This document shows, piece by piece, positions 2,774-32,114 of a stretch of DNA of 64,000 bases; positions within the stretch are counted from its first letter, which is position 1, and every line of letters starts with the position of its first letter. A program made the translations under genes and the position numbers. Under the pieces are notes generated by a model. It did no database searches. It was not told the origin of the DNA and saw nothing but the letters and a program-made list of their open reading frames with translations. Source of the DNA: Vicinamibacterales bacterium. Lineage in GTDB: Bacteria; Acidobacteriota; Vicinamibacteria; Vicinamibacterales; UBA8438. The stretch lies in assembly GCA_965217045.1 (NCBI GenBank), contig OZ244228.1, positions 507,914-571,913 of the forward strand, written 5' to 3'.

Positions 2774-4070
2774 AGGCCACTGGCGGCAATTAACTTGCTA
2801 TCTTCTGGGTTTCGTAGTCTATTTCGGTTGCATGCAGCGCAACGTGGAATTGGAAGCCACCATCGTCGCGAAGTACGCGGTGGTCTCGCCCGTGTTGGAT
2901 GAGCGCAGTCGCCGCCGGTGGGCGGCCACCGAGTCTTTGTTCATCGGCTATGGCGGGGACGCGCTGGTCTCGTCGGCCACGGGTCTGGCCCGGGAGACGA
3001 TCCGGAAGGGTCGCCGGGAGATCTCGCAAGGCCAAACGCCGACAGACCGGGTACGACGTCCGGGCGCCGGGCGGCCCCGTCTCGAACAGAGCCAGCCCGG
3101 TCTGCTGGCCGCACTCGAAGCGCTGGTGGACCCGCTGACGCGCGGAGACCCGACCTCGCCGCTACGCTGGACAGGCAAGAGTCGGGCGAAGCTGGCCGCG
3201 GCGCTGACACAACAGGGGTGGCGAGTGAGTTCGACCACCGTCGGCCGGATGCTGCATCAACTGGGCTACCGGCTGCAATCGCCCCGCAAGCGCCAGGAGG
3301 GAGCGAGCCACCCGGACCGTAACGCGCAGTTCGAGCACATCAACGCGACCGCGGACGCGTTTCTGGCCGAGGGGCGGCCGGTGATCTCGGTCGACACGAA
3401 GAAGAAAGAGCTGGTCGGAAACTTCAAGAACGGCGGGCGGGAATGGCAGCCGAAGGGCACGCCGCCGGCGGTGTTGGTCCATGATTTCCCAACCGACGCC
3501 GAGGGCAAGGCGATTCCGTACGGCGTCTACGACATGGCGCGCAACGAAGCCTGGGTGAGCGTGGGATGGGACCACGACACACCGACGTTCGCGGTGGCGT
3601 CGATTCGCCACTGGTGGCGCCAGATGGGCTGCGGCGCCTACCCCGACGCCACCGCCCTGTTCGTCACGGCCGATGCGGGCGGGAGCAACGGGTATCGGTC
3701 TCGCGCCTGGAAGCATGAGCTTCAACAGTTGGCCGACGAGACCGGACTGACCATCCAGGTGAGTCATTTTCCACCCGGCACCAGCAAGTGGAACAAGATC
3801 GAACACCGGCTCTTCTGTCACATCACGGCGAACTGGCGCGGCACCCCGCTGACGACCTATGAGACTATCGTCGACCGCATCGGGAACACCCGGACGGCGA
3901 CCGGGCTCCGGGTCCTGGCCGAACTCGACGCCGGGCAGTATCCCACGGGCGTTACGGTGACCAAGGAACAGATGGACGCAATCGCGCTGGTCCGCGATAC
4001 GTTCCATGGGGAATGGAATTACAAACTGTTACCCCGATGAAGTTGATAACTTTATATCGATCACTGTCCT
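2774..4070 (+). mobile_element. ISAzo13-family IS inside intron A RT
   Basis: Encloses an intact transposase; imperfect IRs AGGCCACTG.. and ..CACTGTCCT; adjacent RT sequence deleted. Confidence 0.75.
2832..4040 (+). CDS. ISAzo13-family transposase (intact, 402 aa)
   Basis: ISVDTKKKELVGNFKN, PYGVYD, TADAGGSNG, TSKWNKIEHRLF and GEWNY motifs. Confidence 0.92.
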   Translation: MQRNVELEATIVAKYAVVSPVLDERSRRRWAATESLFIGYGGDALVSSATGLARETIRKGRREISQGQTPTDRVRRPGAGRPRLEQSQPGLLAALEALVDPLTRGDPTSPLRWTGKSRAKLAAALTQQGWRVSSTTVGRMLHQLGYRLQSPRKRQEGASHPDRNAQFEHINATADAFLAEGRPVISVDTKKKELVGNFKNGGREWQPKGTPPAVLVHDFPTDAEGKAIPYGVYDMARNEAWVSVGWDHDTPTFAVASIRHWWRQMGCGAYPDATALFVTADAGGSNGYRSRAWKHELQQLADETGLTIQVSHFPPGTSKWNKIEHRLFCHITANWRGTPLTTYETIVDRIGNTRTATGLRVLAELDAGQYPTGVTVTKEQMDAIALVRDTFHGEWNYKLLPR

Positions 4071-4413
4071 TACGGGTACCGGCCAAAACGCACGGCCCAT
4101 CGGGCGGTGCACCGGGTGACGACGGCGGTCGTAAAGAACAAGACCACGGTGATAGACGTGGACTTGGCGTCGTATTTCGATACGGTTCGACACGACATCC
4201 TGCTTGGAAAAGTGGCGATTCGGGTAGACGACGACGAAGTTTTACGGCTGTTGAAGCTCATCCTCAAGGCTGGAGGCAAGCGGGGCGTTCCCCAGGGTGG
4301 GGTTATTACTCCCCGAACGCAAAAGGCAACTTTCTGTTCGATCGGGTGATCACCGGCTGGCGAGACCGACCGGTACTTGATCTACGTCTCAAGAGGTAAT
4401 ATGTTTATGCCTC

Positions 4414-4746
4414 ATGGCGCGGGCCACCAAGGCCGACAAGGCGCGCTTGCTCAACGCCGCGTACCGCCTGCTCGGACAGCAGATGGAACGCGCCGAGGCG
4501 GCCCGGCAACTCGGTCGCGAGTGCGCGTTGTCGCGCCGGCAGGCCTACCGCTATCTTCAGGAAGCGGCCGGGCTGAGCGCTCCGCTGCCGGCGGTCGAGC
4601 CGACCGTCGCAGTCACCTTCAAGCTGCCGGTCAGCACCGTACGCGCAATCCGCGCATATGCCCGCCACAGCGGACTCTCCCTCGGACAAGTCGTCACCCA
4701 GGCGGTGACGGCGTTCCTGGACAACTTCCGTCAGCGACGTGGGTGA
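4414..4746 (+). CDS. Small putative DNA-binding protein (HTH-like N-terminus, ribbon-helix-helix-like C-terminus), LSR element orf1
   Basis: 110 aa; AEAARQL..LSRRQAYRYL and TFKLPVSTVRAIRAYA..SLGQVVTQAV patterns; overlaps the next ORF. Confidence 0.65.
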   Translation: MARATKADKARLLNAAYRLLGQQMERAEAARQLGRECALSRRQAYRYLQEAAGLSAPLPAVEPTVAVTFKLPVSTVRAIRAYARHSGLSLGQVVTQAVTAFLDNFRQRRG

Positions 4747-5041
4747 ACGACAACCACGAAGAGCTCCGCGGCAGGTGCAGCTCGATTGCACGTTCGATCG
4801 ACTTCGCGACAGCAAGATCGCCCAGGCGTACACGTTGTTGGTACCGGCCTGTATGCGTCCGGTTGCAGCCCACGGAATGGAGCGTCCACATGCAGATGGC
4901 GGCGATCTACACGCGCGTGTCCTCGAATCAGCAGCGCGAAGCGCACACGATCGCGAGCCAGACGGCGGCGCTGGTCGAATGGGCAGCGACGCTCGATCTG
5001 GAGGTGCCCCGGCAATGGGTCTTCGAAGACGAAGGCTATAG
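4739..5041 (+). CDS. Small hypothetical protein, LSR element orf2
   Basis: GTG start overlaps the orf1 stop; runs into the LSR start in another frame; true length uncertain. Confidence 0.4.
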   Translation: MGERQPRRAPRQVQLDCTFDRLRDSKIAQAYTLLVPACMRPVAAHGMERPHADGGDLHARVLESAARSAHDREPDGGAGRMGSDARSGGAPAMGLRRRRL

Positions 5042-6673
5042 CGGGGCGACGCTCGAACGGCCGGGATTGGAACAGGTGCGCGACCTGGCAGCCGCCGGCG
5101 ACATCCAGGTGGTGCTCGTGCACAGTCCGGACCGGCTGAGTCGGAAGTACGCCTACCAAGTCCTGTTGATCGAAGAGTTCGGACGTCACGGGGTCGAGAC
5201 CCGCTTCCTCAACGGCCCGTCGAACGCCACGGCCGAGGATCAGCTGCTGGTGTAGTTTCAGGGCATGATCGCCGAGTACGAACGCGCTCAGATCCTCGAA
5301 CGGTCGCGTCGTGGCAAGCGGCACCGCGCGCGAGCCGGCGAGATCAGTGTCCTGGGCGGCGCTCCCTATGGTTATCGCTACATTCGCAAGCGTGATGACC
5401 ACCCGGCGGCGTACGTCGTCATCGACGCCGAAGCGCGCGTTGTCCGCGACGTCTACGAGCACTACACCGTCACGGGCTGGAGCATCGCGGCGATCACCCG
5501 CTGGCTCAACGAGCAAGGTATGCCCACGCGGAAGGTCGGCACCCGTTGGGAACGCTCCACCGTATGGGCGATGCTGCGCAATCCGGCCTATCGCGGCACG
5601 GCGTGTTTCGGCAAGACGCGACGAGCCCAACGGCAGCGCGTGACGCGCCCACTACGGCTGCGTGGCGGCGCCGCCAGTCGCGACAGTGCGAACCACGAAC
5701 GGCCGCGCGAGGAATGGATCGAGATCCCGGTGCCGGCGATCGTGGACGAGTCGACCTTCGCGCGCGCACGAACTGCTGCACGAGAACAAGGTGCACGCCC
5801 GGCGGCGCACGATCGAACTGCACGAGAACGAGCCTCGTACAGGGGCTCGTGAGTTGCCAGAAATGTGGCTACGCGCTCTCGCGCGCGTCGGCCCGGTCGA
5901 GCGCCCGGAAGATTCACTACTACCGCTGCATCGGATCCGACGGATGGCGGCACCTCGGCGGCCCCCGGTGCGACACGCGCCCCGTGCGGCAGGACCTCTT
6001 GGACGAGGTCGTCTGGACCGAAGTGATACGGTTGCTTGAGGATCCGGCACTGATCCAACAGGAACTGGATCGCCGGCTGGCCGCCGCTCAGGCTGCTGAC
6101 CCTGCGAAGACCCGCACGCAGGCGGTGGAGCGGGACCTCACTCGAGTCGGGAAGAGCATGGAACGGCTGCTCACCGCCTACCAGGAGGATCTGCTGTCGC
6201 TCGAGCAGCTACGTGAGCGGATGCCGTTGCTGCGTCAACGTGAGCAGACGCTACGCTACGAGTTGAACGCTTTGGTCGAGCAGACTCGCGAGCGCGCCGC
6301 GCATCTGCGCTTGGCCGAGACCCTGTCGGCGTTTCTCACGCGCCTGCGCGCGACGGCCGAGACGCTCGACATCGTGGAGCGGCAGCGAATCGTGCGCCTC
6401 GTCGTCAAGGAGGTCCTCGTCAATGACGACAAGATCGTGATCCGCCACTGCATTCCCGTACCCTCGGGGCCACCGCCAACGAACGGTGGCGGACCGAACA
6501 ACGACGCCGACAACGCTGCGGACCCTCGAAGTTACCTTTTGCGTTCGGGGAGTAATTTCACCCTTGCTCAGCAATCTCTATCTCAACGAGGTGGACAAGA
6601 TGCTGGAGCGGGCGAAGGACGTCACCCGACAAGGACGCTACCACTACATCGAGTATGCTCGATTCGCCGATGA
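4890..6673 (+). pseudogene. Large serine recombinase (resolvase + recombinase + Zn-ribbon + coiled coil); in-frame TAG at 5253-5255 and indels at ~5770-5850
   Basis: AIYTRVSS catalytic motif, EDEGYSG, DRLSR, AEYERAQILERSRRGK, CQKCG..YYRC. The ORF reads through attR into host RT DNA. Confidence 0.9.
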
Positions 6674-6675
6674 CC

Positions 6676-7373
6676 GTGCGCCACGAAGGCGCAGAAGGGA
6701 GGCCGAGATGGCCGCCTAGCTGCAGCCATGCTGCACGAGGGATGAGGGTAGGCCCCTCGGAGCCGCCCGGCAGGGGGAGGCTCCAAACCGCCGTGCGCTG
6801 CTTCGGTCAAGAGCCGGGGTGGTAAGCGTCACGGAAACGGCGCGGCGCGACCGCGTCAGGTAGGGTGCAGGGAGACGAAGTGGATGAACCACCGGCAACG
6901 TGTCGAAAGCGTAGGGACGGTGTCGAAACCGGGGCGAGTCGTTAACCCGGGACGAGTCCAGTGGGAGCCTGCAGCTTGGCTGGGCGGCACCCGGCATAAA
7001 GGTGGCGTGACCCTGCACCAGGCCCTTGTGTGGAACGTGGGAACCTGTCGCCTCGATGTGAAGGGAGAAATCCAAGGGGCCGACCCCCAAGGATGAGAAG
7101 CCCGATGCGAGGCACAGGGGCGGAGCGACCCGTACGAGCGATGAAGTCGGGGAAACTCGATGGAGCAAAGGGGTCGCGTCATCCAGCGTGTCCCGACGGT
7201 CAACCGCGCGTGCGGGAGGAGCCGTCGAGCCACGCGAAGCCGTTCAGGCTGTTCGCCCATTGGCATCTGCTGGGGGTGACGCTGGCGGCTGGATGATGGG
7301 AGCTGTATGAGCGGAGACGTTCACGTACAGTTCTGCGAGCGCCCGGGGGTGAGATTCCCCCGGGCGACTCACC
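6676..7373 (+). mobile_element. Group II intron B, ORF-less deletion derivative, inserted 1 nt after the RT FADD codons
   Basis: GTGCG at 6676; domain V GAGCTGTATGAGCGGAGACGTTCACGTACAGTTC; ends ..GACTCACC. Removal restores TTC GCC GAT GAC C|TG (FADDL). Near-identical to 29753-29190 plus the 3' end of the full copy. Confidence 0.92.
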
Positions 7374-29204: not shown

Positions 29205-29862
29205 CGGCTCCTCCCGCTCGCGCGGTTGACCGTCGGGACACGCTGGATGACGCGACCCCTTTGCTCCATCGAATTTCCTCGACTTCATCGCTCGTACGGG
29301 TCGCTCCGCCCCTGTGCCTCGCATCGGGCTTCTCATCCTTGGGGGTCGGCCCCTTGGACTTCTCCCTTCGCATCGAGGCGACAGGTTCCCACGTTCCGCA
29401 CAAGGGCCTGGTGCAGGGTCACGCCACCTTTATGCCGGGTGCCGCCCAGCCAAGCTGCAGGCTCCCGCTGGACTTGTCCCGGGTTAACGACTCGCCCCGG
29501 TTTCGACACCGTCCCTACGCTTTCGACACGTTGCCGGTGGTTCATTCACTTCGTCTCCCTGCACCCTACCTGGCGCGGTCGCGCCGCGCCGTTTCCGTGA
29601 CGCTTACCACCTCGGCTCTTGACCGAGGCAGCGCACGGCGGTTTGGAGCCTCCCCCTGCCGGGCGGCTCCGAGGGGCCTGCCCTCATCCCTCATGCAGCA
29701 TGGCTGCAGCTAGGTGGCCATCTCGGCCTCCTTTCCGCGCCTTCGTGGCGCACAGTCGTCTGCGTAGTTGACGATTTCCGCCTCGAAGCGCCGGGCGTAG
29801 CCCATTACCTTCCAGCCCAGAATGAAGCGACGCATGTAGACGTTGCTGAACAGCGGTGAACT

Positions 29863-30280
29863 TACTCCCCGAACGCAAAAGATAACTTCGAGGGTCCGCG
29901 GCGTTGTCGGCGTCGTTGTTCGGTCCGCCACCGTTCGTTGGCGGTGGCCCCGAGGGTACGGGAATGCAGTGGCGGATCACGATCTTGTCGTCATTGACGA
30001 GGACCTCCTTGACGATGAGGCGCACGATTCGCTGCCGCTCCACGATGTCGAGCGTCTCGGCCGTCGCGCGCAGGCGCGTGAGAAACGCCGACAGGGTCTC
30101 GGCCAAGCGCAGATGCGCGGCGCGCTCGCGAGTCTGCTCGACCAAAGCGTTCAACTCGTAGCGTAGCGTCTGCTCACGTTGACGCAGCAACGGCATCCGC
30201 TCACGTAGCTGCTCGAGCGACAGCAGATCCTCCTGGTAGGCGGTGAGCAGCCGTTCCATGCTCTTCCCGACTCGAGTGAG
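29863..30280 (-). mobile_element. Right end of a second copy of the LSR element (attR plus recombinase 3' end)
   Basis: Near-identical to ~6137-6554; arm at 29863-29888 joined via an AG core to TTCACCG (S-P) of intron C RT. Confidence 0.9.
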
Positions 30281-30371
30281 AACGGCGGAGCAAAAATAGA
30301 CCACAGCGCGGCGGTGTGTGACGTGGTCCCGGTGGTTTGGACAACTCGAGGGCTTGGTTAAGGTGTATTCC
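30277..30371 (+). mobile_element. Stacked IS-end fragments (IS21-like end 30277-30318, IS3-like left end 30319-30371)
   Basis: AACGGCGGAGCAAAAATAGACCAC resembles IS21 ends; TGACGTGGTCCCGGTGGTTTGGACAAC..TAAGGTGTATTCC resembles the IS3 end at 32114. Confidence 0.5.
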
Positions 30372-30727
30372 GATTGCGAAAGCACGCCCTCGTCGTCCTC
30401 GGCTCCTGCACTGACCGGCGGCTGCCACGGTTGGCACGAGGCCGGTTCGTATCCGGTTATCGATGATGATGATGCGCTGTGGAACTGTGGGAATCTCGCG
30501 GCCGGTGCGCAGGCATGGGCGGCGGCGCTCGCCCGCGAGATTTCCAACGGCCTGTGGGTGCCCGCCTCGCCTCCCTCCGGATTCAGCGCGACGGTGAGCG
30601 GGCGTCCACAGGCCGGGCAGGTCCACAGCGCCGGGTGGGACATGGTGCTCGGTCCGCTCATGCGCTGACGGCTTCCTCCTTCTCGATGAACTGGAACGGT
30701 GCTGGAGCCGGTCAACGAACGGCTCAC

Positions 30728-32114
30728 CGACGTGGTCCGGTTCTCCGGAAAGGTCCCGGACTTGGTCAAGGTGGACCCCGGTTGGTAAATCACGCCCCGC
30801 GTCGTCCCTTGCCTCCCATGCGCGCCGGCGGCTGGCACGGTCGTCACGGCGTCGGTCGTGGCCGCGATGCCCGCCGTGGTGGTCCCACGCCCCGCTGCCC
30901 GCGTGTTCACGCCGCCCGCTCCTCGCGGTAGGCTTCGGCCGGCGTGCGTCCGCCGAGCGCCGAGTGCGGACGCACGTCGCTGTAAAATGTCATCCATTCC
31001 GAGATCACCTGCTCGGCCGCAAACCCGTCCGCCAGCTCGTGAAGATACACCGCTTCATACTTCAGCGACCGCCAGAGCCGCTCGATGAAGACGTTATCCA
31101 GGCACCGACCGCGGCCGTCCATCGAGCACCGCGCGCCCGCAGCCTGGACACGGTCGGTGAACGCCGCGCTCGTAAACTGCGACCCCTGGTCGGTGTTGAA
31201 GATGCCGGGCGTCCGCGTCTGCAGCGCCGCCTCCAGCGCCTCGACGCAGAAGCTGCTATCCATCGTGTTCGACAGCCGCCACGACAGCACATGTCGGCAT
31301 GATCGGCCCAGTCCATGATGCACCGACCGCGGCCGCGACCAGGTCCACAGAAAGCCGGTCGTCACCGGGATGTACGTGATGTCCGCGCACCACACCTGGT
31401 CCGGACGGTCGATCTTCAGTTCGCGCAGCAGGTACGGGTAGACGTGGTGATCCGGCTGCGCGTCGCTCGTGCGCGGCTTGCGGTAGATCGCCTCCAGGCC
31501 CATCAGGCGCATCAGGCGCCGGACTCGAAGGCGCCCCGCCGCCACGCCCTCGCGCCGCAGGTGGCCCGCCATCTGCCGACTGCCGTAGAACGGGTACTGG
31601 AGCGACAAGGCGTCCATCCGCCGCATCAACGCCAGGTTCTCCGCGCTCTCTCCCCGCGGCGCGTAGTACACCGATGAGCGGCTGATGCTCAGCAGCACGC
31701 ATTGGCGCCTGATGCTCAACGCGCCGTCCCGGTCGACCAGGTTCCACCGCGCCGGCCGGCTCAGCGCTGCAACCCCCGCTGAAAAAAATCCCGTTCCATC
31801 GTCAACTCGCCGATCTTCGCGTGCAGGTCGCGGATCGTCGCCTCGTGCTCCGACGGGCCGGGCGATCCGCCGCGGGCGAACACCTCGTCCAACCCCTCGA
31901 CCGCCTGCCGCTTCCAGGTGCCCACCTGGTTCGGATGGACCTCGTGCTTGGCCGCGATCGCCTGCACCGTTCGGTCCCCCCGCAACGCCTCGAGCGCCAC
32001 CCGTTTCTTGAAGTCCGCCGTGAACCGGCGGCGCCGTTTCGTCATCATCCCAGTGCCTCCCCAAGGCCCTGGAATACACCTTAGCCGGTTGTCCGAAAAA
32101 CCGAGACCACCTCA
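30728..32114 (-). mobile_element. IS3-family element (orfA 31761-32048; orfB ~31765-30907 with indels)
   Basis: RRRFTADFKKRVALEAL orfA; T-rich slip site GATTTTTTT; WCADITYI, FNTDQGSQFTS, DNVFIERLWRSLKYE. Confidence 0.88.

Follow-up and report, generated by a model that had tools for sequence, protein, structure and literature searches.

The question raised by this locus is where the gene of a recombinase ends. The window, a stretch of 64,000 nucleotides, contains a 2.25-kb element whose recombinase frame passes the element's right boundary without a stop and is finished by the DNA into which the element was inserted. Our main reading, to which we assign a probability of about 0.75 as a whole, is that this is a cargo-free large serine recombinase (LSR) element with attP inside the recombinase gene, and that the full enzyme is encoded only where the two element ends are joined.

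The element (4305-6554) is IS-sized and, according to the listing of open reading frames (ORFs) in the window, carries no cargo. Its boundaries were set independently from public contigs of 8 runs in which 4304 is followed directly by 6555; 2250 bases are missing, 3 bases (ATT) overlap, and these contigs represent the empty site. This overlap (4305-4307) is common to attL and attR. Comparison of copies and relatives showed insertion in either orientation, precise ends and multiple copies. The features of the integrated copy were as follows:

4305..4306, + strand: crossover dinucleotide AT at attL (from the sequence and the empty-site joint)
4307..4332, + strand: left terminal inverted repeat, the P' arm of attP, TACTCCCCGAACGCAAAAGGCAACTT
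4307..4399, + strand: 30 codons and a TAA, finishing the LSR only if joined behind 6556, YSPNAKGNFLFDRVITGWRDRPVLDLRLKR and stop
4414..4746, + strand: small DNA-binding protein of 110 aa (ORF found in all copies)
4890..6556, + strand: LSR body, a pseudogene in the window (from domains and fold matches)
6528..6554, + strand: right terminal inverted repeat, the P arm of attP, GAAGTTACCTTTTGCGTTCGGGGAGTA, coding for the conserved ..SYLLRSGS
6555..6556, + strand: crossover dinucleotide AT at attR (from the sequence, the arm comparison and the empty site)
6557..6673, + strand: integrated-state tail of 38 codons (FTLAQQ..SIRR), then stop

The two 26-bp terminal arms are kept in about 55 relatives, and joining them gives attP as a palindrome of about 54 bp. 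The left arm doubles as code for tail residues 1-9 (YSPNAKGNF). At the other end, the last codons encoded by the element are AGT (6551-6553) and AAT (Asn, 6554-6556), the latter made up of the right arm's final base (A6554) and the AT core; it is the final codon ahead of the divergence of the tails. The ATG of the small gene lies 14 nt past the tail's stop codon, and its product has an HTH-like N-terminal part and a ribbon-helix-helix-like C-terminal part. No Pfam match above cut-off was obtained for the 110-aa protein; a homologue on a public contig (L093) carried a weak RHH_1 mark. A sigma-70 promoter scan of 4250-4950 returned no match. The frame 'orf2' (4739-5041), proposed as a further gene in the original prediction, had no family match and no other support, and is not retained.

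In the recombinase, Resolvase (PF00239) was matched at residues 4-151 (E = 4.7e-34), with an invariant AAIYxRVSS motif in the region of the Ser nucleophile, as were Recombinase (PF07508, DBD1) and Zn_ribbon_recom (PF13408, DBD2). The structural model has long helices at 365-502 and then a β-hairpin, corresponding to the inserted coiled coil and DBD2, and the best fold matches were the SPbeta, phiC31, Bxb1 and LI integrases. The crossover falls downstream of all three Pfam domains, and only residues past about 553 are exchanged. The dinucleotide varies between elements and was the same at attL and attR in 36/56 relatives (20 mismatched); the precise empty site, without target duplication, fits a conservative exchange at a 2-bp core. 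On this evidence the enzyme meets the definition of an LSR, with its catalytic activity and the circular product being inferred.

The same genome contains eight near-full copies at 99% identity (the window copy counted, one copy split by an insertion) and three further copies at about 82-83%. Among the seven 99%-identical sister copies at least five have an intact recombinase frame, and in intact copies the LSR body comprises 552 residues up to ..SYLLRSGS. Every copy in the genome reads through the right arm without a stop. The LSR of the window is a pseudogene with three lesions, identified by comparison with an intact sister copy and in agreement with public contigs:

5253..5255, + strand: lesion 1, an in-frame TAG where the sister copies and public contigs have CAG
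5769..5828, + strand: lesions 2 and 3, loss of 2 nt after 5769 and duplication of 10 nt (5819-5828), with a joint frame shift

The claim that the LSR has no stop before attR holds for the last frame of the window gene only, and fails upstream, where the lesions lie. Because the window's own copy is dead, a scheme in which the tail acts as a switch is not operating at this locus.

The last frame of the window copy (5546..6673) reads ..PRSYLLRSGS-NFTLAQQSLSQRGG..VCSIRR with its stop at 6671-6673. As had been described, the tail is borrowed from an intron: 6557..6673 is part of the gene of a host group II intron RT, read out-of-frame. A second copy in the window, on the opposite strand, was made up of the following parts:

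29861..30280, − strand: C-terminal part of the LSR and right arm, core AG
29684..29860, − strand: integrated-state tail (FTAVQQRLHAS..MLHEG)

Its minus-strand frame (29684..30997) reads ..SYLLRSGS-KFTAVQQRLHAS..MLHEG, which confirms the ending ..SYLLRSGS-KFTAVQQ..MLHEG given for this copy beforehand. Copy 2 is a stump that consists of the element's last ~420 nt (30280..29861), cut off by other insertion sequences. It sits in another intron RT, at the motif that the window copy also occupies, and its tail is drawn from intron RT DNA and a second nested intron.

If 6556 is joined to 4307, as in the predicted circle, the frame does continue into the element's left end, giving NYSPNAKGNFLFDRVITGWRDRPVLDLRLKR and a TAA at 4397-4399, and the predicted joint between right and left end reads ..GGGGAGTG-AT-CACTCCCC... 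More than 500 loci were seen in the search for relatives. Related elements of 2.2 kb, about 60 in number, were compared from Acidobacteriota, Gemmatimonadota, Proteobacteria and Chloroflexi, and in none of them does the LSR frame meet a stop before the element ends. The integrated tails range from 0 to >500 unrelated residues and are different in every insertion; of the 120 best database relatives, 117 carry 1-228 unrelated residues behind ..YLLR(S/T)G(S/R). When the ends are joined as predicted, a tail of 29-31 residues was read in 58/60 elements, with the consensus (H/Y)(S/A)P(Y/N)(A/T)KGNF(Q/E)FERVV.GWR..VLDLRLK(R/K) and then a stop, and the LSRs of elements with this tail are as little as ~66% identical. 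Since the last 29-31 codons and the stop sit at the left end, the full enzyme of about 583 residues can come only from joined ends. That attP lies inside the recombinase ORF, and that integration swaps the C-terminal tail, is thus valid for the whole family; judged from the aligned sequences, the split-gene architecture is a family-wide property and not one of the window copy only.

Excision of a circle is an established mechanism of serine recombinases. For this element an excised circle is inferred by analogy, and no circle was seen. Logan contigs of 9 runs, of which 5 were DNA or unlabelled and 4 were metatranscriptomes, were compared with the segments 3900-7000 and 6420-6600; they contained the empty site and no joint from right end to left end. 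Assembled contigs drop rare forms and cannot show absence, so the missing circle joint is a null result and not a refutation. One RNA contig that resembled the junction was rejected, as it came from a copy inserted in the opposite orientation.

A metagenome scan for joined arms matched seven contigs. Natural right-end/left-end junctions were present in ORFs of 582 aa (L093) and 609 aa (L099), both terminated by the tail, and right-arm/core/left-arm joints also occurred in L094 and L097. Where they could be resolved, the natural junctions were chromosomal tandems of diverged copies (80-84% identical), not circles. L094 (2284 bp) was considered as a closed circle and rejected; it is a tandem or a graph path, because RT target DNA flanks its left end and there is no terminal overlap. 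Three other contigs (L095, L096 and L100) contained a perfect 54-bp palindrome without a recombinase upstream. Among the best 120 database relatives no circle-type tail was found, and a database search restricted to the tail yielded one real case, again a tandem (P0122).

The mechanism that we propose starts from this division. The right end provides the first 552 codons and the crossover codon, and the left end the last 29-31 codons with the stop, just upstream of the small DNA-binding gene. Joined ends, in an excised circle or, rarely, in a head-to-tail tandem, encode the complete enzyme of ~583 residues; every integrated copy encodes the same catalytic and DNA-binding body, followed by whatever the flank supplies, from 0 to >500 arbitrary residues. 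We infer, with no functional difference shown, that the capabilities of the enzyme depend on whether it has the tail, and the tail swap may be the way in which the element senses its own state.

The structural models bear on how this could work. An AlphaFold2 model of the full-length enzyme was built from the body alignment, and a 93-residue C-terminal construct was modelled with the tails aligned; the tail strand reached a pLDDT of ~75 in both. As the construct contains no other strands, the last hairpin must be the partner of the tail strand. The models are of moderate quality (mean pLDDT 58-65), and the tail rows were not paired with their own bodies. We infer from them, with moderate confidence, that the conserved tail strand NF-x-F-E/D-R-V-V docks against the final β-hairpin of DBD2, the zinc-ribbon domain, beside the coiled coil's base. 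The published anchoring site of directionality factors is the junction of DBD2 and coiled coil, and this site may be blocked in LSRs whose C-terminal extensions add β-strands, unless these strands are another route to directionality (PMC12286644). The idea that the two forms of the enzyme differ in stability or directionality gains plausibility from the predicted docking and the published RDF site, in the absence of functional data.

The functional reading that we consider most likely, held tentatively and at somewhat less than even odds, is that the tail-bearing form made from the circle integrates and the tail-less chromosomal form acts on attL x attR, so that the topology of the element sets the direction of recombination and replaces or supplements a directionality factor. 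A structural version of this proposal, on which we would place slightly less weight, is that the tail clamps the DBD2 hairpin at the site used by RDFs in phage integrases and locks the enzyme in integration mode, and that its loss on integration frees attL/attR synapsis. The chromosomal copy would make the form that synapses attL with attR because integration takes the tail off the gene. In each DNA state the isoform encoded would then be the one that catalyses departure from it, giving a self-contained two-state machine in 2.25 kb.

The reading next in likelihood, possible and only a little behind, is that the enzyme requires its tail to fold or to be fully active, whichever reaction it performs, and that integration changes the activity of the enzyme and not its direction, a 'parking-brake' or 'semi-suicidal' arrangement. 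The tail-less form would simply be weak: integrated copies would stay put because they make a crippled enzyme, excision would be rare, and the fully active enzyme of the circle would re-insert quickly; what movement there is would come from residual excision, a rare event, or from full-length enzyme that a circle or a tandem copy provides in trans. The strong conservation of the tail is compatible with this, as are the natural tandem junctions that restore the full ORF. The tail is also predicted to complete the β-sheet of DBD2, and its loss could destabilise that domain. A parallel exists in the SSV-type archaeal integrases, which are inactive after integration, where attP splits the gene (PMC7253208). 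However, only 30 of ~583 residues are lost here and all recognised domains stay intact, and the element is clearly mobile, with seven more 99% copies in this genome and two identical copies in Telmatobacter bradus. The latter two copies, 100% identical, belong to the cultured strain DSM 23630 and lie at about 2,818,039-2,820,274 and 3,729,390-3,731,626 of NZ_CP184532.1. The altered integrase of phage Mx8, moreover, is still active with changed specificity (PMC6070905).

A different doubt concerns whether the tail matters as protein at all. The 93 bp of the left end could have been kept only as a binding arm and as promoter/operator of the small gene, with the tail functionless as protein and its openness a by-product of high G+C. 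An open stretch of 30 codons is indeed not significant by itself, as 68% of 30-codon stretches in the window (67.9% G+C) are free of stops; open frames of this length being common here, the significance of the tail rests only on the family comparison. Codons 1-9 are the recombinase's own binding arm in the inverted repeat and are also constrained as DNA. CTTGA(C/T) and GTAATATG are near-invariant as DNA, which would also fit a promoter of the small gene, and codon 26 is CTT in 49/49. Against this, the variation sits at third codon positions: mean column entropy past the arm was 0.63/0.49/1.26 by codon position (permutation p = 1e-5 for the periodicity), and dN/dS was 0.16 in the tail frame versus 1.3 (1.33) and 2.2, both above 1, in the other two forward frames. 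Invariant residues change codon family, with six codons of both the CGN and AGR type at R13, six at L28 and switches between CTN and TTR at invariant Leu positions; G18 uses four codons, and W19 is invariant. Length changes in the tail are whole codons (the 30- and 31-residue forms differ by one), and the frame is open to the same stop in 47/50 distinct relatives, the remaining 3/50 stopping one codon earlier. Conservation of the frame after attL was the check that the original prediction had named for itself, and with 47/50 frames open and a dN/dS of 0.16 it was passed. Binding sites and promoters do not give such a pattern, and constraint on the DNA alone, which we now regard as very improbable, is largely refuted. 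As far as sequence comparison can establish it, the tail is under strong selection at the protein level.

Least credible of all is translation of the tail frame in the integrated state as another product, be it a small peptide, a fusion to the host RT or an antisense ORF, for which a host-side ORF entering the left end in the tail frame (P0121, from the tail-restricted search) and an antisense 'mirror' frame that is open in 39/50 relatives with a pN/pS of 0.36 could be cited, but the tail frame has no conserved start codon, flank sequence, frame and orientation vary between insertions, the RT frame of the window, on reaching the element, is in another register than the tail and hits a stop after 15 codons (ORF 4107..4349), and the antisense frame has stops in 11/50, would run out of the element and is expected to show a low pN/pS because its wobble positions are shared with the true coding frame.

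What decides between integration and excision by LSRs is under active study. The family is a natural experiment on this question, in which circular and inserted DNA encode one enzyme body, respectively with and without a conserved C-terminal strand, and the sequence directly gives both enzyme forms and all four att sites. Should the tail set the direction, it would be a very small, factor-free and state-dependent switch, of interest for genome engineering with serine integrases, and would explain the transposon-like behaviour of cargo-free LSR elements. For annotation, thousands of 'recombinase family protein' entries (550-780 residues) carry spurious tails, and the true C-terminus is nowhere annotated.

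A full-text literature search found no account of this element family or of an LSR gene spanning attP, and the known systems were compared one by one. In the IS607 family the serine recombinase is small, its DNA-binding domain is N-terminal, and terminal inverted repeats are lacking. This family is excluded, as the enzyme here has 552+ residues with C-terminal DNA-binding domains and the element has 26-bp inverted arms. Tn4451/Tn4453 (TnpX) and Tn5397 (TndX) are LSR transposons with a circular intermediate, and carry cargo. In Tn4451 the joined ends form a promoter and recombinase expression changes (Lyras & Rood 2000, cited in PMC13023037). The Tn4451/Tn5397 elements have their own ends and targets and their circle alters transcription, whereas the joint described here completes a coding sequence in an element without cargo. 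In SprA, an 'extreme C-terminal element', and in the SCCmec Ccr recombinases, extra C-terminal β-strands, place a short element beside DBD2 that has been linked to directionality or to blocking of the RDF site (PMC12286644, citing Abe et al. 2021). There the C-terminal element is always in the protein, whereas the tail of the present enzyme depends on circular versus integrated DNA.

Genes split by attP are known from other settings. In mycobacteriophage BPs and relatives, attP lies inside a gene and the proteins of the free and integrated state differ at the C-terminus, forming a switch (PMC4557955). The gene split in BPs is the repressor, and an ssrA-like degradation tag is lost; here it is the recombinase, and its tail ends ..LDLRLK(R/K) (..LDLRLKR in this element), is neither Ala-rich nor ssrA-like and is predicted to form a β-strand. 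The 'suicidal' SSV-type integrases of archaeal viruses and plasmids have the recombination site in the ORF, and integration splits the gene (PMC7253208). They are tyrosine recombinases split mid-gene into two inactive halves, whereas in the present element the exchange affects just the final ~5% of the protein, and every catalytic and DNA-binding domain is kept. The nearest precedent is IntP/IntX of myxophage Mx8, in which the crossover likewise lies inside the recombinase ORF: attP is part of the integrase reading frame itself, the gene formed on integration is recombinant with a new 3' end, and the altered protein is active with changed properties (PMC6070905, citing Tojo 1996 and Magrini 1999). 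Mx8 is a 50-kb phage with a tyrosine recombinase, and hence another chemistry, and one target in a tRNA region, whereas the element is a 2.25-kb, cargo-free and multi-copy LSR element whose integrated tail is arbitrary (0 to >500 residues) and whose arrangement is kept in a family across several phyla. It works like the IntP/IntX type and is not a member of it, since its enzyme is not a tyrosine recombinase.

A large serine recombinase (LSR) gene completed by the joint between its element's own right and left ends is a well-supported architecture in this family; a role as a switch is only proposed. The limits of the 2.25-kb element (4305-6554) were fixed independently by contigs from eight public runs containing the empty site, in which 4304 is joined straight to 6555 and 2250 bases are skipped, with 3 bases (ATT) at the joint assignable to either side. 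The element ends in 26-bp inverted arms (TACTCCCCGAACGCAAAAGGCAACTT.. and ..AAGTTACCTTTTGCGTTCGGGGAGTA), which when joined form a near-perfect 54-bp palindrome centred on a 2-bp core, the expected attP. Resolvase, Recombinase and Zn-ribbon domains were identified in the recombinase, whose best fold matches are the SPbeta, phiC31, Bxb1 and LI integrases. Also within the element lies:

4414-4746: gene of a small DNA-binding protein (110 aa)

The ORF at 5546..6673, the C-terminal part of the recombinase, reads ..NNDADNAADPRSYLLRSGS and, past the element's right end, enters out-of-frame DNA of a group II intron reverse transcriptase (RT; NFTLAQQ..VCSIRR), with its stop at 6671-6673. At the right end of copy 2, a partial second element (30280..29861, minus strand), the reading is ..SYLLRSGS-KFTAVQQ..MLHEG. 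With base 6556 joined to base 4307, the frame continues as NYSPNAKGNFLFDRVITGWRDRPVLDLRLKR and ends in TAA at 4397-4399. The three tails (C-terminal residues past the joint) claimed in the original prediction for the integrated, copy 2 and predicted-circle forms were all found in the sequence. Its read-through of the window LSR past the right end also held, strictly for the last frame only, but it had overlooked that this recombinase is dead: 5253-5255 is TAG where the intact version has CAG, 2 nt are deleted after 5769 and 10 nt are duplicated at 5819-5828, with intact versions at all lesion sites in public contigs. Copy 2, likewise overlooked, is a 420-nt stump. Of the 30-codon windows in this DNA (67.9% G+C), 68% are stop-free, which makes one open 30-codon stretch unremarkable here. 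In several copies (window 4377-6556; element copies c5, c6, d1 and d2) the recombinase frame is additionally open from element position ~51 across the small gene, reaching as many as 784 codons, and there is an ATG at 4402 preceded by AAGAGG. This long frame is closed in other copies and, judging by composition, is probably meaningless, off-frame read-through of G+C-rich DNA.

Relatives of the recombinase with at least 78% identity number in the thousands (annotated lengths 538-780 residues), and 117 of the 120 best relatives continue past a conserved ..YLLR(S/T)G(S/R) with 1-228 residues that are unrelated. For family comparison, 80 loci were fetched from named genomes of Vicinamibacterales and other Acidobacteriota, Gemmatimonadales, Gamma- and Alphaproteobacteria, a Chloroflexi MAG and the cultured Telmatobacter bradus DSM 23630. 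About 55 of these were 2.22-2.27-kb units with arms like those of the window element, nearly all inserted in the RT motif, in both orientations. The recombinase frame passes through the right arm in every unit, and integrated tails range from 0 to >500 residues. When the reading was instead carried over the predicted joint, 58/60 had tails of 29-31 residues that end in an identically placed stop and share one consensus, (H/Y/D)(S/A)P(Y/N)(A/T)KGNF(Q/E/R)F(E/D)R(V)(V/I).GWR....(V)LDLR(L/R)K(R/K); the exceptions were one frameshifted copy and one locus cut by a contig end.

A single group II intron RT motif (PQGG-x-x-SPLL-x-N) is the family target in several phyla (window 4290-4320 and 6540-6580; loci L014-L090). 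The 2-bp core varies among elements (AT, GC, GT, AG, TT, CT, AA). Cores of attL and attR, the element's left and right ends, were equal in 36 of 56 elements (tabulated by hand count); at roughly one locus in three they disagreed, a mismatch without explanation given a serine recombinase. T. bradus (locus L056, NZ_CP184532.1) carries two intact copies that are 100% identical, pointing to recent movement, and this cultured strain offers a laboratory system for the family.

Eight near-full copies, 99% identical, lie in the host genome (G000; 6.45 Mb, 12 contigs, C1-C12), including the dead window copy and one split by another insertion; their target is the codons of the RT motif PQGG-x-x-SPLL, in both orientations. 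Copy c3 (C1:843042-845285) has the same RT-target half on both flanks in inverted orientation, the pattern expected after inversion between two copies lying in opposite directions. In both interrupted RT genes of the window another group II intron (GTGCG..) starts right behind the YADD codons (6674-7300; 29753-29300, minus strand), so that each host intron bears two different parasites ~120 nt apart. Three further copies form a subfamily of ~82-83% identity, also present at loci L022 and L023:

C2:957550-959795: subfamily copy
C12:546365-548550: subfamily copy
C11:313603-315020: subfamily copy

Two of these interrupt a perfect palindrome of 46 bp at its midpoint, and the third retains its right junction alone, in similar DNA. 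The subfamily target is the AGCT centre of the palindrome (ctgaagttgccccggctatgcgg-AGCT-ccgcatagccggggcaacttcag), not the RT motif, and the integrated tail there is just SSA, then a stop.

Conservation of the frame past attL, proposed originally as the check, was confirmed: among 50 distinct sequences 47 were open to a common stop and 3 stopped one codon sooner, with dN/dS (Nei-Gojobori) of 0.16 in the tail frame; the two remaining forward frames gave 1.33 and 2.2. Mean column entropy at codon positions 1, 2 and 3 was 0.63, 0.49 and 1.26, leaving out the nine tail codons that are the arm itself, and a column permutation test gave p = 1e-5. Codon choice varies widely at near-invariant residues (R13 as CGG/CGC/CGT/CGA/AGG/AGA, L28 with six Leu codons, G18 with all four, R20 with five); W19 is invariant, and 30- and 31-residue tails are separated by a clean 3-nt indel. 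The antisense mirror frame was open in only 39/50 with a ratio of 0.36, a value that would be expected of a frame sharing wobble positions with a true coding frame. No conserved start codon was found in the tail frame among family elements, and flanks vary in sequence, frame and orientation, so the element's own right end is the sole constant upstream partner of the tail. Two blocks in the tail region, CTTGA(C/T) and GTAATATG, are also fixed as DNA and could additionally serve as promoter elements for the small gene, which starts with an ATG 14 nt past the tail's stop codon; a sigma-70 scan of 4250-4950 found no promoter.

Joined ends were found in nature. A tail-restricted protein search returned P0122, a 582-residue recombinase ending ..SYLLRSGSARSPNAKGNFCFDRVVPLNRSRSVLDLRLKR from a 2568-bp metagenome contig, and seven further contigs came from screening 241 million metagenome records for a right arm separated by 2 nt from a left arm. 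In two of them, L093 (ERZ27257246 k141_8628359) and L099 (Ga0208077_1001564), two family members that have diverged from each other (84% and 80% identity, respectively) lie head-to-tail, and the upstream recombinase crosses the joint into the downstream left end, giving complete ORFs of 582 and 609 residues. Here an incomer seems to have recombined with the end of a resident copy instead of the RT target, and the upstream recombinase has its full tail again while chromosomal. L094 and L097 contain the joint, with tandem and circle origin indistinguishable. The remaining three (L095, L096 and L100; one sequence from three JGI samples) show a perfect 54-bp palindrome, the left arm and its exact mirror, where an intact element begins on its left side, and the DNA upstream lacks a recombinase; this could be a solo arm or remnant.

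The excised circle was not observed and is inferred from the established serine-recombinase mechanism. Its joint was absent from contigs of nine runs, four of them metatranscriptomes covering the element, in which the empty site was present; because rare forms are lost from contigs, this is an evidence gap and not counter-evidence. In the four metatranscriptomes, word depth was tens of times greater on flanking intron/IS sequence (3900-4110, 6700-7000) than on the element, and the element's last ~550 nt (5980-6600) were about 5-20 times deeper than its remainder.

P0122 was modelled at full length with AlphaFold2 using an alignment of 45 family bodies. The model was mediocre overall (mean pLDDT 65), with tail residues 560-568 (NFCFDRVVP) predicted as a β-strand (pLDDT ~76) behind a disordered linker. 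A 93-residue construct of last hairpin, linker and tail, with tails correctly aligned, contained only the hairpin strands (E13-19, E23-30) and the tail strand (E72-79, pLDDT ~74), so that in this model the tail strand must pair with the last hairpin. This hairpin ends the zinc-ribbon domain (DBD2), immediately past the coiled coil. Directionality factors bind at the DBD2/coiled-coil junction (PMC12286644; cryo-EM, PMC11722253), and in some LSRs C-terminal extensions with extra β-strands may block the factor site or be 'an alternate solution to directionality' (PMC12286644). We tentatively propose, with a probability of roughly 0.4, that the tail-bearing form made from the circle integrates, and that the tail-less chromosomal form is competent for attL x attR. 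The chief alternative, in which the tail-less form is merely weak and excision therefore stays rare, is a serious possibility, if short of probable. A difference in stability between the two forms is possible, but the tail is unlike an ssrA-type tag.

Full-text searches of the literature yielded no account of this element family or of a joint-completed LSR gene. That integration rewrites an integrase C-terminus is a known idea; its LSR version was not found described. The Mx8 myxophage tyrosine integrase (IntP/IntX) has its own C-terminus rewritten by integration (PMC6070905), and SSV-type archaeal integrase genes are split upon integration (PMC7253208). Mycobacteriophage BPs places attP inside its repressor gene (PMC4557955), and the circle joint of Tn4451 builds a promoter for its own LSR (cited in PMC13023037). 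Unlike all of these, the family described here has a serine recombinase whose coding sequence itself is completed by the joint.
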